Below, one piece after another: positions 1,208 through 19,590 of a stretch of DNA of 32,000 nucleotides. The translations under genes were made by a program, and so were the position numbers. Below the pieces are notes generated by a model. That model was not told where the DNA came from and did no database searches. It was given only the letters and a program-made list of their open reading frames with translations. The stretch comes from an uncultured archaeon. Lineage in GTDB: Archaea > Iainarchaeota > Iainarchaeia > Iainarchaeales > CSSED10-239. The DNA lies in assembly GCA_964496765.1 (NCBI GenBank), contig CAZCAP010000008.1:1-32000 (forward strand), in the 5' to 3' direction. Each line of letters begins with the position of its first letter. Positions within the stretch are counted from its first letter, which is position 1.

Positions 1208-1726
1208 TTATTTTGTTTTAAACTCTTCTCTTAATTCTGTTAATATTTTACAAAATATTTTTCTTGGAAGGGATTTTGAATCTTTTATTTGAACTAAATG
1301 GATTAATTTTGCGTTCCCTGTTGATAATAATGCTTGCTTCTGATCTGGGTTTTGTAAAAACCTCTCTCTTTCAGCTCTCTTTGCAAGTTCATATAATTCC
1401 TTTGAATCATAAGGGACAGCCTTATTATTATAATAAAGGTTGGTTGGATTTATACCTTTCGATATTAGTTTTGCTTGTATCCAAAATAATTTTCGTGCTT
1501 CTAATCTTTTTTCGTGACCTTCTGGAAATTTAAGACCTTGCCAAAAGCCTTCAAAAGATTCATACTTTACTCCATCTAAAATAAATGGAGATCTTGTAAA
1601 ATTAGATAAGGTGCTTGCAATTCCTTTTCCTTTTGAATTAATATTAATTAGTTTGCCTCTACTTAGCATACAGAATAAATTAACAGTTTTTACAAAATAT
1701 TTATTTGCAAGCTTTCTTAATTTCAT
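1208..1726 (-). CDS. NADAR (YbiA/DUF1768) domain protein, putative ADP-ribose / N-glycoside processing hydrolase
   Basis: 172 aa. LSNFTRSPFILDGVKYESFEGFWQGLKF aligns by eye with E. coli YbiA FSNFAAWPIKVDGKTWPTSEHYFQAQKF (Glu retained). ALLSTGNAKLIHLV matches ALLLATAPAKLVEH. C-terminal ILTELREEF matches LLMELREQL. Confidence 0.8.
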   Translation of the reverse strand: MKLRKLANKYFVKTVNLFCMLSRGKLININSKGKGIASTLSNFTRSPFILDGVKYESFEGFWQGLKFPEGHEKRLEARKLFWIQAKLISKGINPTNLYYNNKAVPYDSKELYELAKRAERERFLQNPDQKQALLSTGNAKLIHLVQIKDSKSLPRKIFCKILTELREEFKTK

Positions 1727-10473: not shown

Positions 10474-11322
10474 TTAGTGTTTTTCTATTCTTTTTCTGTT
10501 TGTTAGATCAAACCTATTCTCCTTTGAAACAACCTTCTTTTTAATTATTGATTCTAGCTCCTTTCTTGCATTTCCAGAAACTGTTCCACCATCATTTGCA
10601 TCTTTCTTAAGATTTGGAAAATCCTTTGAATCTCTTTCTTTTGTTATTTCTTTTGTGCTTAGTTCTCCAAGCATTGTAAAAACAAGTTCCACATCAGTCA
10701 TATTATCCCTTATATTTTGGTTTTTAAACCTAGGATCTAAGTTTTTTATTATTTTATGTTCTTTTGTGGTTACATCAAAAGTGGCTTTTGAGATTTCATC
10801 AGTTAATATCGCATAATCCTTACTTTTCTTAATTCCTCTTTTGTTCCATTCATCAGTTAAGTCTAATCTAATTATTGTTCCTCTTATTCTTTTTGCAATC
10901 CAGTCTTCTGAGTATCCTTTGATTTCATAATACCTTTTTGCTCTTGAATATAATAATTCAGGATTTTCAATCTCCTGTATTCTCTCATAACCTGTTTTTG
11001 CTAGCCATAATTTAAATGGTTCTGCTTTCTTAGATGGAATTGATTGAATAATTCTAAATAGGCCTTCTGTGTTTGAACAATCTGTTTCTCTTAATTTACC
11101 ATCTTCTGCAAATAATTTCAACTGTACGATTTTATCGTACTGTTCAATGCCTCCCTCTTCCTTAATCTTGATTTTTAGATCTGACCAATACCTTCTTGGC
11201 TCTGAACTTTCAGTTAATGCACCAACCACATCAACAACTGAAAACCACCATTCTTCATTATACCATGTTCTTCTAATTCTTTTTGTTTCAAAAACAGCTA
11301 TTGCATTTTCCTTATCTCTCAC
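10474..11322 (-). CDS. Bro-N domain protein with DinD (DNA-damage-inducible protein D)-like C-terminal region; a family common on phages, plasmids and islands
   Basis: IRRTWYNEEWWFSVVDVVGALTESSEPRRYWSDLK...LFRIIQSIPSKKAEPFKLWLAKTGYERIQEIENPE fits the Bro-N pattern. The C-terminal half (YAILTDEISKATF....NIRDNMTDVELVFTMLGELSTKEI...GGTVSGNARKELE) resembles DinD-type proteins. The track ORF extends to ATG 11412, but GTG at 11322 is preceded by GGAGAGGTGA plus 5 nt, and the extension (MCFNLICLDTHPLQKRY...) overlaps the conserved upstream motif, so I prefer 11322. Confidence 0.75.
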   Translation of the reverse strand: MRDKENAIAVFETKRIRRTWYNEEWWFSVVDVVGALTESSEPRRYWSDLKIKIKEEGGIEQYDKIVQLKLFAEDGKLRETDCSNTEGLFRIIQSIPSKKAEPFKLWLAKTGYERIQEIENPELLYSRAKRYYEIKGYSEDWIAKRIRGTIIRLDLTDEWNKRGIKKSKDYAILTDEISKATFDVTTKEHKIIKNLDPRFKNQNIRDNMTDVELVFTMLGELSTKEITKERDSKDFPNLKKDANDGGTVSGNARKELESIIKKKVVSKENRFDLTNRKRIEKH

Positions 11323-11359
11323 TTCACTCACCTCTCCATATATATTATGTTTTAGGAAT

Positions 11360-11398
11360 GTATATCTTTTTTGGAGGGGGTGCGTGTCCAAGCAAATT
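11360..11398 (-). promoter_or_regulatory. Copy 2 of the shared upstream element: TATA-like gtatatc plus GC-rich core ggagggggt-N4-gtccaagcaaa (core 11373-11396), upstream of the Bro-N gene and in the divergent spacer with hel308
   Basis: See copy 1 (1163-1203). The 9-nt and 11-nt blocks are identical and the 4-nt spacer length is conserved. Confidence 0.6.
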
Positions 11399-11457
11399 AG
11401 GTTAAAACACATAAAAAACCATAATAATATATTAAGTTACATAAATATATATGTTAT

Positions 11458-14365: not shown

Positions 14366-15148
14366 TTACAATCTTTTTATAAATATTTTTTCTGTTAATA
14401 TTTTGCTATCAAATTGATGTTCAAATTGAAATCCTCTTTTTTTAAAAGCTACTTTGACTTCATCATAAAACTTATTTAATTTTTTTCTAAAAATGATTGT
14501 TCGAAGATAATCAAATGGTTCAGTTAAAGTTAAGTCGGTTTTTGTAAATGTAATAAAAGCGCAACCTTCTTTGTTTAATGAATATGCGGTTTTTAAAAGC
14601 ACATTTTTTTTAAGTTCATCTAGTGTATACTGAAAACCACCATATGTTGAAAAAATAAGGTCTTGCTTTTTATCAGGAACAATACTTTTTGTTCCATTTT
14701 CATATTTCATTCTTTCAATTGGATTAACAATAATATGATCAATGTTTTTTGTTGAAGATAACTTCGTATCACTTGGATCAATAGTAATTCCAGTGGTTTC
14801 AACAATGTATTTGGATTGCAATTCTTTTTTTATTTCCTGTAGAAATTTACCTTCCCCAAGCCCTTCATCCATGATACGTAGTTTTTTGTGTTTAAAATTA
14901 GCATTTATGAATTCAATTAAATTTTTTTCTTTAAATAAGGATTTAAATATATAATTATATTCTTGCAATCCCTTGTTCTTATTCCATTTAAGTGGTTTAA
15001 ACCCATCACCAGGAATATATCTTTTTCTAATCTTTGCATTGTATTTTACATATTTTTTTCTAATTTCTTGTGTACGTAATTTTTTATAGATTTCTCTAAC
15101 TTGTAATTCTGCCATCCCTCCCTTAGGAATTTTTTTAATAAGCACCAT
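14366..15148 (-). CDS. Putative class I SAM-dependent methyltransferase with a Lys/Arg-rich N-terminal extension
   Basis: Motif order fits the Rossmann methyltransferase fold: motif I RIMDEGLGEGKFL, post-I ETTGITIDPSD, motif II QDLIFSTYG, motif III LNKEGCAFITF. No specific subfamily recognised. Confidence 0.55.
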   Translation of the reverse strand: MVLIKKIPKGGMAELQVREIYKKLRTQEIRKKYVKYNAKIRKRYIPGDGFKPLKWNKNKGLQEYNYIFKSLFKEKNLIEFINANFKHKKLRIMDEGLGEGKFLQEIKKELQSKYIVETTGITIDPSDTKLSSTKNIDHIIVNPIERMKYENGTKSIVPDKKQDLIFSTYGGFQYTLDELKKNVLLKTAYSLNKEGCAFITFTKTDLTLTEPFDYLRTIIFRKKLNKFYDEVKVAFKKRGFQFEHQFDSKILTEKIFIKRL

Positions 15149-16845: not shown

Positions 16846-19590
16846 TTATACTTTATATCTTAGAAAAGCACCTAGTCCACCAAATGTTTCAAAGAATTGC
16901 TTTCCTTCTGGAGATTCAATTGAAATTAGTTCAACCTTAGTGCTTGTTTCTTCTGCAATCTCAACAAAGTAATCAAAGATATCTAGTTCTTCAATTAATT
17001 CTGAATCCTTGCCACAGGAGGAACAAACAATTGTTTCTTTCTTTTCTTCTTTTTCTGGATCTCTAATTATTTTATAATCAATATTGTTACACGAATTGCA
17101 CTTGTACTTGTTTGCCATCCAGGTTATTCCTTCGGAGAGGAGGATGCTATCCACTTGTCCAAGATTTAATGCATTCATTACCTCTCTATAACCATAGGTC
17201 GCAAGTTCATTCTTAGCAACCTTTTCAACAAACTTATTAACAAGTGCTCTTTCCTTCATTACTCCTACTTCTTTTAGAATATCTCCAGATTTATCAAGTA
17301 TTTCTTTTATTCCTGATTCATCTGTGTAGGATGTGTCTATTGTTCCAAGAACCTTATCTCTTAGTCTATGATCAAGATCTCCTGCTTCTAAAAACCAATT
17401 TTTAGAATGCCCTGGTCCACCAACCACGATACCCTTAAGCTTTTCAATACCAACAAAGGTTGCATTTACTTTTTCTCCAACTCTTTTGTAAAAGTCCTCT
17501 TCAGCTTTTTCTCTAAGACGCTCGAAACGATGTGATGAATTATGAACAACAAGCCCATTCGCAATAAAATTTTTATTTTTTACTGTGATGTCAACCATAG
17601 AGGTTGATGTTTGTTTTTGTATATGTATTTTACTTATTTTAACAGGAATTACTGGGTAATCCATTATCTTTTTTAGATCTATATATAATTTTTTATCTTT
17701 GATTTTCTTTAAGATTGAACTTTCAAAGGTTGCTTTACCCATCATTCTTTTGTTATTAAAGAAAGCACTAACTTTTGGGAATAATTGAAGATTATATCCT
17801 TTTGTTTCAATTAATTTTCTAATAAAACTACCAGACATAATTATTTGTCTTGATCGTTCCATATTTGATTTTTTAGTGATTACTTTGTCAAGTATTATTT
17901 GTTTTTTCTTAGATGTAAATCCAATTTTTTTCTTAAATAATTGCAATGATGCTTTTTCAGTAATTGATATTGTAAATCTATGATTATCCGTGTATGGGTT
18001 CATATAATTATCATATTCAACGAGTGATGAAATTATTGAAAATCTTAATAGAACTAATTGTATTTGCTGAGCCAATCTCTTGTTATTTATTCCAAAACCA
18101 ACTCCTCTATCAAGATTAACATATCCTTCCGCATCAAATAATCCTTTTAAGAAGCTTGCAAGAATACTGTTTGGAGAACACAATATTTGTTTTGGAATTA
18201 ATGTATCTCTTGCTTTCTTTAGCTCAGGGAATTCTTCTTTAATTAATCTTACAAGAGGCCTGCTTGTAAATCTTAATTGATGATAATTTTTTGTCTCTCT
18301 GAATCTATAACTTGAATTTACTGAAAAATAAGAATCATATTTCTTTTTATATGCCAAAGCAACATCTTTATTCTGTTCAGAGAAGGAGATTCTATCCTCT
18401 TCAAAGTTTCCATCTCCAGCAAAATACCCCATAAACTGAGCAAACACTATATCTATTTTGGTTGGAAGCTTAATATTTGTATAAATTGTATTTATAGTGT
18501 ATTTTTTTAAAAATGTAGAATAGTTTATTTTTAATTTATTACAAATATTTTTTAAAAATTCTCTATTTATATTTACTTTTCCAATCTCAACACCTGAAAT
18601 TGCAGTTTGGGTAACTCCTAAACTTTTTGCAAGTTCTTTTTGAAATAGCTTTCTTTTTTCTCTTTCTTTTTTTAATAAACTTTTTCCTTCTTTTGTGATT
18701 GTAAATGAATTATAATATTTTTTTGAATCAATTACTTGAATAGTTCCTTTAACATCTATTTTTTCAGGCATTAATAAAGTATCTCCTTCTTTAAGATCTT
18801 CTGCTGTCTTTTCAATAACTTCAGTTCCTGTATGAACGAAGAAGAGATGATCTTTGCTGGATTGGATTTCAAGTCTTGGTTCCTTTGTTATAATTGTATA
18901 AATTTTGTTCTTCTTTACATCCCATTTGTTTGAAACTACAGAATCAAATAGATTATAATTATTAAAATTTATGGATTTAACATCTTGATTCTTGGATAGT
19001 TCTTTAATGTCAATTATGTTTCCATCAGCTAATTGAACAAATGCGTCTTTTAAACATTGACCTCCAGCACGTGATTTACCTGGAACAGCAGATGTTTCAT
19101 TACTTATAATTTGAATTGCTTTCCCTCTAAGAATAGCAAGGGTTGCTTCTCTCTTATCAACAGCAATAAAACCATAAACTTCGTCTGTTTCAGCCATCTC
19201 TTCTAGTGGAGTTGTATGAAAAGAAGAATCACACCAATAAAGCTTGGTTGTTAATCTCTTTGGTGGAATAATTTCAAGAAGAGTAACATCTGATTTGGAT
19301 GGATTAGTTGAAACGTCTCCTGAAAAAAGAACTAATCCATTTTCTGGAAGCTTGAAATCTATTTGTCTTAGATAATTAATTATTCTTTTTAGAGCTGCTT
19401 GAACATTTTTTCTAGTCTGAGAGCTCTTTATGTTTGATGATTGACTTTGCTCATCAGTTAATTGCTTAGTAACTGTGCTTCTATCAGCATCAGGAGGAAG
19501 GTACACACTTATTAATTGGGTTCCTGTTCCTTTAAACTTCTTAATTGCTTTTAATTTCTTTTTTAATAATAATAAATTTGTTTCATCCAT
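16846..19590 (-). CDS. prf1: Peptide chain release factor aRF1, interrupted by an in-frame intein (precursor 914 aa; predicted spliced product 408 aa)
   Basis: The N-extein carries NIKS (SSNIKSSQTR), YxCxxxF (LYWCDSSF) and GGQ (GKSRAGGQ). The C-extein resumes SSHRFERLREKAEEDFYKRV... and continues through the aRF1 domain 3 pattern. The extra 506 aa have intein hallmarks (next feature). Confidence 0.9.
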   Translation of the reverse strand: MDETNLLLLKKKLKAIKKFKGTGTQLISVYLPPDADRSTVTKQLTDEQSQSSNIKSSQTRKNVQAALKRIINYLRQIDFKLPENGLVLFSGDVSTNPSKSDVTLLEIIPPKRLTTKLYWCDSSFHTTPLEEMAETDEVYGFIAVDKREATLAILRGKAIQIISNETSAVPGKSRAGGQCLKDAFVQLADGNIIDIKELSKNQDVKSINFNNYNLFDSVVSNKWDVKKNKIYTIITKEPRLEIQSSKDHLFFVHTGTEVIEKTAEDLKEGDTLLMPEKIDVKGTIQVIDSKKYYNSFTITKEGKSLLKKEREKRKLFQKELAKSLGVTQTAISGVEIGKVNINREFLKNICNKLKINYSTFLKKYTINTIYTNIKLPTKIDIVFAQFMGYFAGDGNFEEDRISFSEQNKDVALAYKKKYDSYFSVNSSYRFRETKNYHQLRFTSRPLVRLIKEEFPELKKARDTLIPKQILCSPNSILASFLKGLFDAEGYVNLDRGVGFGINNKRLAQQIQLVLLRFSIISSLVEYDNYMNPYTDNHRFTISITEKASLQLFKKKIGFTSKKKQIILDKVITKKSNMERSRQIIMSGSFIRKLIETKGYNLQLFPKVSAFFNNKRMMGKATFESSILKKIKDKKLYIDLKKIMDYPVIPVKISKIHIQKQTSTSMVDITVKNKNFIANGLVVHNSSHRFERLREKAEEDFYKRVGEKVNATFVGIEKLKGIVVGGPGHSKNWFLEAGDLDHRLRDKVLGTIDTSYTDESGIKEILDKSGDILKEVGVMKERALVNKFVEKVAKNELATYGYREVMNALNLGQVDSILLSEGITWMANKYKCNSCNNIDYKIIRDPEKEEKKETIVCSSCGKDSELIEELDIFDYFVEIAEETSTKVELISIESPEGKQFFETFGGLGAFLRYKV
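17539..19056 (-). mobile_element. Intein (506 aa, aa 179-684 of the aRF1 ORF) with LAGLIDADG homing-endonuclease domain and an XRE-type HTH
   Basis: Cys1 codon TGT at 19056-19054, directly after GGQ. Block A CLKDAFVQLADG; block B-like SSKDHLFFV. LAGLIDADG motifs FMGYFAGDGNF (about 18403-18441) and FLKGLFDAEGYV (about 18121-18159). Terminal NGLVVHN (His-Asn, 17544-17539), then Ser+1 (17538-17536). HTH KELAKSLGVTQTAISGVEIGK at about 18520-18678. Confidence 0.9.

Follow-up and report, generated by a model that had tools for sequence, protein, structure and literature searches.

The DNA analysed here is a 32,000-nucleotide stretch of an archaeal contig, referred to below as the window, and it carries a gene for the translation release factor aRF1 that is interrupted directly after the codons for its catalytic GGQ motif. 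With a probability of roughly 0.9, the interruption is a canonical class-1 intein with a double-motif LAGLIDADG homing endonuclease, carried in frame by the chromosomal aRF1 orthologue, between its Gln178 and Ser179, in a DPANN archaeon of low guanine–cytosine content (Iainarchaeota/Diapherotrites type). This reading is carried by the boundaries of the element, its intact splicing and endonuclease residues, its fold, a close relative whose corresponding site is precisely empty, the purifying selection that acts on host and intein alike, and a patchy presence among related genomes.

The interrupted aRF1 gene and its intein

An earlier note on this DNA, made from the sequence alone, had described an aRF1 open reading frame (ORF) of 914 amino acids (aa) with an insert at positions 17539-19056, and translation confirms this to the base: on the minus strand, window positions 17539-19056 encode exactly the 506-aa insert. 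The NIKS, YxCxxxF, and terminal GGQ motifs that the note recognised in the N-terminal host part (the N-extein) are found at aa 53, 118, and 176-178. The class-1 junctions that it proposed—Cys1, His-Asn, and Ser+1—lie at aa 179, in the ...HN ending at aa 684, and at Ser 685, and are invariant in 121/121 sequences of a conservation alignment comprising the window and the best 120 of 421 matches. The features of the locus are as follows, with (-) denoting the minus strand.

16846..19590 (-): complete aRF1 precursor ORF, stop codon included; 914 aa, 104 kDa; NCBIfam TIGR03676 at 443.9 bits, in two stretches
19057..19590 (-): N-extein, aa 1-178, ending ...GKSRAGGQ; Pfam eRF1_1
19423-19434 (-): NIKS motif of the N-extein, aa 53
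19219-19239 (-): YWCDSSF (the YxCxxxF motif) of the N-extein, aa 118
19057-19065 (-): catalytic GGQ of the N-extein, aa 176-178
17539..19056 (-): intein, 506 aa from Cys1 to Asn506 (precursor aa 179-684, ending ...NGLVVHN); 58.5 kDa, isoelectric point 9.75
19054..19056 (-): Cys1, the first nucleophile, in block A CLKDAFVQLADG (aa 179); invariant, 121/121
18847..18858 (-): block B, Ser-Lys-Asp-His (intein aa 67-70; TxxH with Ser for Thr); Ser and His invariant, 121/121
18523..18675 (-): XRE/Cro-type helix-turn-helix (HTH) module, in the interval between the N-terminal Hint part and the endonuclease; Pfam HTH_3, E 1.7e-9
18403..18444 (-): first LAGLIDADG motif FAQFMGYFAGDGNF, catalytic Asp at intein aa 215; Asp in 118/121; Pfam LAGLIDADG_3
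18118..18159 (-): second LAGLIDADG motif ASFLKGLFDAEGYV, catalytic Glu at intein aa 310; Glu/Asp in 117/121
17539..17598 (-): blocks F and G MVDITVKNKNFIANGLVVHN, with the block F Asp (D489), penultimate His505, and terminal Asn506; invariant, 121/121
16846..17538 (-): C-extein, aa 685-914, starting SSHRFERLRE; Pfam eRF1_2 and eRF1_3
17536-17538 (-): Ser+1, aa 685; invariant, 121/121

When the insert is removed from the translation by script, a 408-aa protein with a contiguous GGQSSHRF remains, which reads ...GKSRAGGQSSHRFERLRE... across the junction. The NCBIfam equivalog TIGR03676 matches the spliced protein from model position 4 to position 403 of 403 in one unbroken stretch, at 471.7 bits (cut-off 234.7). 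Aligned to 4af1, a solved aRF1 chain (E 6e-86), and likewise to eRF1 chains, the protein shows no gap through vpgk..GGQS..rf.rlr, and therefore the insert boundaries restore the canonical catalytic loop. The intein-free relative P0122, described below, gives the same picture of a junction that restores GGQS. Membership of the aRF1 equivalog is supported both by a full-length match above cut-off and by the presence of NIKS, YxCxxxF, and GGQ. The low extein dN/dS given below marks the GGQ-interrupted gene as a functional, syntenic aRF1 orthologue and not a decaying copy.

On the insert itself, Pfam recognises Intein_splicing at 74.3 bits (cut-off 35.8), LAGLIDADG_3 in two stretches at 68.3 bits (cut-off 22.5), and a Cro/C1-type HTH_3 domain at 38 bits (cut-off 23). 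The NCBIfam model intein_Cterm scores 19.5-20 bits, over its cut-off of 15.6, and intein_Nterm scores 21.9-23 bits, just under its cut-off of 24.5. The pair of LAGLIDADG motifs read by the earlier note in the insert corresponds to the two LAGLIDADG_3 stretches; their helices end ...YFAGDGNF and ...LFDAEGYV, supplying the acidic residues Asp215 and Glu310, respectively. The HTH_3 module was absent from that account. Invariant in all 121 aligned sequences are the GGQ preceding the junction (Gln at -1), Cys1, the block B Ser and His, the block F Asp, the His-Asn end, and Ser+1; in block B, Ser stands in place of Thr throughout the alignment.

An AlphaFold model of the intein, built with 80 homologues, has a mean pLDDT (predicted local distance difference test) of 95 and a pTM (predicted template modelling score) of 0.93. 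Within the model, the HTH forms a five-helix unit (intein aa 122-186) ahead of the first LAGLIDADG helix. Foldseek comparison with the Protein Data Bank (PDB) places the TliVMA intein first (E 3e-22), accompanied by PI-PfuI, PI-TkoII, the PhoVMA intein, and PI-SceI; the top archaeal matches (TliVMA intein, PI-PfuI, and PI-TkoII) span E 3e-22 to 4e-19. Free-standing LAGLIDADG enzymes and the transcription factor WhiA (rank 17) follow further down.

By established class-1 intein chemistry, Cys1 of the 104-kDa precursor would form a thioester at the Gln-Cys bond with the assistance of the block B Ser and His, and Ser+1 would attack this thioester to give a branched ester. Asn506 would then cyclise with the help of the block F Asp and His505, after which the Gln-Ser peptide bond would be restored through an O-to-N shift. 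The predicted outcome is an aRF1 of 45.8 kDa whose GGQS loop is whole, together with a free, basic endonuclease of 58.5 kDa. The GGQ loop must reach the peptidyl-transferase centre, and because this loop carries a 506-residue insertion in the precursor, the unspliced protein would be incapable of peptide release; termination in the cell can therefore soundly be expected to depend on splicing. Any aRF1 allele that lacks the intein would be a target for the freed protein, which would cleave at the GGQ|S codons; repair would then copy the intein in, and the HTH module may add DNA contacts for the endonuclease.

Empty site and distribution

A search with the spliced sequence retrieves intein-free aRF1 proteins of 408 aa, P0121 and P0122, at 94% aa identity. 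P0122 is encoded on five metagenome contigs (L001-L005), which share with the window the gene order phosphoribosyltransferase, small hypothetical gene, aRF1, and TruD. At the DNA level, both flanks of the window locus match L001, with the sole break at the GGQ|S codons (CAA|TCA), and the joined exteins align to it without a gap over 1227 nt at 86.7% identity. The joined-extein site reads CGTGCTGGAGGTCAA|TCATCACATCGTTTC in the window and GGGGGTCAA|AGTTCGATGAGATTT in L001-type alleles. The statement of the earlier note that removing aa 179-684 leaves 408 aa with GGQS is borne out by the single TIGR03676 stretch and by the gapless match to the L001 allele. Chance is ruled out as the source of this arrangement, and relative to the syntenic intein-free allele, the aRF1 intein is a precise insertion/deletion polymorphism of 1518 bp between orthologous genes.

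The first 24 nt of the C-extein (window 17515-17538 (-) against L001 2755-2778) form the most diverged 24-nt stretch of the whole gene, with 13 mismatches between the window and L001 and 10 between L001 and the intein-bearing relative L006, against a mean of 3.2. Nearly all of these differences are synonymous, for example, Ser TCA versus AGT and Arg CGT versus AGA. When the two intein-bearing alleles, window and L006, are compared with each other, the same stretch ranks only 37th in divergence. This pattern could mean that the empty allele has escaped cleavage through changes in its target site, or it could mark a co-conversion tract; it is treated as a lead and not as a result. Separately, approximately 840 bp are missing from the otherwise collinear L001; in the window, this region holds a 260-aa ORF (14366-15148 (-)) with no Pfam match, located between DUF5654 and OmdA-like genes.

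Searching with the full precursor returns 421 proteins at E<=1e-10. The best 120 of these 421 matches all read GGQ|C...HN|S with the same architecture, and they derive from metagenome-assembled genomes (MAGs) labelled Iainarchaeum/Diapherotrites, Woesearchaeota, Nanoarchaeota, or 'archaeon'. JGI labels some copies 'eRF1/intein/homing endonuclease', and NCBI often uses just 'LAGLIDADG endonuclease' or 'helix-turn-helix protein'. Among the 121 aligned inteins, three size classes can be distinguished: approximately 505 aa with the HTH (108 copies), approximately 434 aa without it (12 copies), and a single remnant of 271 aa. This remnant lies in P0099 (682 aa; 72% identical in the exteins) and keeps all splicing residues; its HTH and first LAGLIDADG motif are gone and the second motif has decayed (KFLKIYFDKTATI), and it looks like a mini-intein in the making.

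An exhaustive intein-only search of 50%-identity representatives yields 2327 clusters at E<=1e-3. Around 60 of the best 146 clusters have aRF1 as host, and RadA, GAN/RecJ-like, and metallo-beta-lactamase proteins are among the other hosts. Among 51 related species genomes, scanned by six exact peptide patterns, the intein is present in 11 and the rest are without it; the closest intein-carrying genome is MAG ELA007 (JBAWVI01), whose C-extein is 89% identical. Such patchiness, a decayed copy, and an empty syntenic site are all predicted by a homing cycle.

Selection, inheritance, and rival explanations

The ratio of nonsynonymous to synonymous substitution rates (dN/dS, or omega) was estimated by the Nei-Gojobori method, with the intein-free allele and the intein-bearing relative L006 as comparators. 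For the exteins, dN/dS is 0.059 against the former and 0.063 against the latter. The intein has a value of 0.119 against L006, with the Hint, HTH, and endonuclease sub-regions all within 0.07-0.13; the endonuclease region stands at 0.13, and the endonuclease and HTH regions together span 0.10-0.13. The whole intein and the host exteins are therefore under purifying selection, and the intein is maintained.

Inteins from hosts of only 37-45% identity share 56-60% of their residues with the window intein, compared with 44-55% for inteins from closer hosts (Spearman -0.58 for intein versus extein identity). In the 121-sequence alignment, the intein of Iainarchaeota-type hosts evolves faster than the gene that carries it (mean distance 0.73-0.79 versus 0.44-0.53), whereas intein and host rates are equal in Woesearchaeota/Nanoarchaeota-type hosts (0.58 versus 0.59). 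The faster intein evolution in Iainarchaeota-type hosts thus accounts for the negative correlation of identities to the window. Transfer across phyla, considered on the basis of these identities, was dropped in view of this rate difference and of neighbour-joining trees that agree on host groups, and no horizontal transfer is claimed.

Patchy distribution, an endonuclease omega of 0.13, and the divergence hot-spot close to the junction point indirectly toward homing, and the aRF1 element is a typical homing intein that is probably still mobile. Several points weigh against the main reading given at the outset. The capacity to splice and to cleave DNA is deduced from residue conservation. Intein dS between the window and L006 (0.70) is close to extein dS (0.66), and thus the intein has travelled with its host since the two split; in neighbour-joining trees, intein and exteins likewise fall into matching major host groups. 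Both results make recent inheritance look vertical, and active homing is presumptive. The junction hot-spot is not reproduced in an Aenigmarchaeota pair of intein-plus and intein-free alleles, and for this reason it was dropped as a general rule. Lastly, only 32 kb of the genome is seen, so that a second aRF1 copy could lie elsewhere.

The equal synonymous divergence and the agreement of coarse tree topologies, both of which fit vertical descent, would suit an intein that has become fixed and is no longer mobile. Splicing would then remain obligate and the endonuclease would not be homing, and the element would persist only because the cell could not survive its imprecise removal from the GGQ loop. 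In keeping with this, viral contigs scanned twice yielded nothing nearer than 23% identity and hence no close relatives able to act as vectors. Loss of mobility is nonetheless a doubtful explanation. The endonuclease and HTH regions (omega 0.10-0.13) experience purifying selection as strong as that on the Hint parts, the endonuclease retains its two catalytic acidic residues, and presence and absence of the intein alternate at the same locus between alleles that are 87% identical in DNA. Furthermore, an endonuclease that is no longer needed visibly decays, as illustrated by P0099.

It is unlikely that the intein has instead been domesticated as a conditional element, with redox, temperature, or another cue tuning the amount of active aRF1 and the HTH perhaps allowing the free intein to bind DNA as a regulator, in the manner of WhiA. 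Long-term purifying selection and retention in many DPANN lineages would agree with such a role, as would the XRE-type HTH in 108/121 copies and the presence of WhiA, a transcription factor combining a LAGLIDADG scaffold with an HTH, among the structural matches at rank 17. However, close relatives do without the intein, its endonuclease catalytic residues are intact, unlike those of WhiA, and HTH-less variants exist. More specifically, the intein might be a post-translational gate on DPANN termination, whereby the rate of splicing sets the pool of active release factor and the freed, HTH-bearing endonuclease has a second DNA-binding role; this is a decidedly improbable proposal, although, if true, it would account for retention under purifying selection across several phyla.

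It is highly improbable that this aRF1 gene is a copy the cell could do without, that it is decaying, or that it arose as an error of assembly: the 914-aa ORF is uninterrupted, the exteins have a dN/dS of 0.06 in comparisons with two relatives, the gene lies at the syntenic position of its intein-free orthologue with NIKS, YxCxxxF, and GGQ intact, the same architecture recurs in >120 independent assemblies, there is no second aRF1 copy within the window, and two aRF1 loci occur in 0/51 related assemblies, the last being a weak test limited to six exact peptide patterns.

Other aRF1 variants, genomic surroundings, and known systems

A second intein site exists in aRF1, directly before the Cys of YxCxxxF (YLYM|C...HN|CDDH). 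It is occupied in P0289 (aa ~124-378) and P0303 (aa ~130-639), both of which also carry the GGQ-site intein.

Some intein-bearing aRF1 proteins read GG[W/F/M/S]|C...HN|SQ in place of GGQ|C. Among the 120 closest intein-free relatives of one of these proteins (P0386-P0505), 118 contain GGWS..R[YF]. Several GGW proteins are labelled Aenigmarchaeota aRF1, and NIKS and YxCxxxF are retained; the Trp codon is TGG, and all three stop codons are used locally. With or without an intein, the GGW gene occupies one conserved slot beside ribosomal protein genes (loci L058 10001-11218 and L059 10001-12739). GGQ is supposedly universal at this position, and a literature search found no paper on GGW in its place in aRF1. 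A partial parallel is offered by the VLRF1 families, which have a GGxSQ motif (PMC6514570). A relocated glutamine of this kind does not explain all GGW hosts, since 33/120 also lack Gln at +2. The GGW aRF1 of Aenigmarchaeota may be a more surprising lead than the intein.

The window is otherwise an ordinary DPANN chromosome. It encodes a CCA-adding enzyme, Dph2, FttA/aCPSF1, a proteasome subunit, FKBP, a Hel308-like helicase, TruD, HerA, PAC2, aIF2-alpha, GINS, primase, Rad50, and PCNA, together with three tRNAs; several classical intein hosts among these genes are without inteins here. Two virus-typical domains occur among these housekeeping genes, namely Bro-N at 10474-11412 (-) (E 2.6e-11) and a phage GP30.3 domain gene at 1208-1726 (-) (E 4.6e-15).

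The suggestion of the earlier note that the insertion site may be new holds in part. No paper on an aRF1/eRF1 intein was found, but the element is abundant in public sequence data and some copies have been auto-annotated by JGI. The negative applies to the full-text literature searched. NCBIfam holds dedicated models for several intein-bearing proteins and none for an intein-containing aRF1; partial matches of the window intein to the models for intein-bearing IF-2, DnaB, GyrA, Tes, and ribonucleotide reductase stem from their intein parts. The main text of Novikova et al. 2016 reports few inteins in translation components and lists aIF2, not aRF1 (PMC4760082). The GGQ insertion site is apparently unpublished, and the element itself is common among DPANN archaea in public data.

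The GGQ loop of a class-I release factor joins the list of intein insertion sites. Together, the GGQ and YxCxxxF sites indicate that the core machinery of translation termination is targeted too, earlier surveys having reported few inteins in translation components. For annotation, long DPANN aRF1 genes are to be regarded as intein-bearing and not as a 'LAGLIDADG endonuclease' or 'HTH protein', and phylogenomic marker sets that include aRF1 need intein masking. The intein is, in addition, a candidate for a new splicing and endonuclease reagent with a Gln(-1)/Ser(+1) context.

The mechanism of the aRF1 intein is ordinary and not new. Like the TliVMA and PhoVMA inteins (7qss, 7qst), PI-PfuI (1dq3), PI-TkoII (2cw7), and PI-SceI, it has a Hint domain split by a two-motif LAGLIDADG endonuclease, class-1 junctions, and a position in the catalytic motif of an essential protein. 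Foldseek E values to these solved inteins range from 3e-22 to 1e-11, and the archaeal members reach a TM-score of 0.55-0.67 by query length, whereas sequence identity is just 12-18%. Their hosts are an ATPase, ribonucleotide reductase, or polymerase, while the host of the aRF1 intein is a translation termination factor. The accessory elements also differ: PI-SceI has a DNA-recognition region and PI-PfuI has the stirrup, in place of which the aRF1 intein has an XRE-type HTH_3 module.

In the representative search, the nearest relatives in hosts other than aRF1 reside in RadA (P0310), DHH proteins (P0296 and P0314), and a metallo-beta-lactamase (P0297), the last of which also contains HTH_3, as in the aRF1 intein. 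The inteins of RadA, GAN/RecJ-like DHH phosphoesterases, and aIF2/IF-2 are approximately 28-34% identical to it and occupy unrelated insertion sites in these different hosts. WhiA (3hyi, 8dy9) has the pairing of a LAGLIDADG fold with an HTH in common with the aRF1 intein; however, WhiA is a stand-alone protein that no longer has the catalytic residues and whose HTH is C-terminal, whereas the aRF1 intein has its HTH ahead of an endonuclease that retains the catalytic Asp and Glu, with HTH and endonuclease together lying inside a Hint domain.

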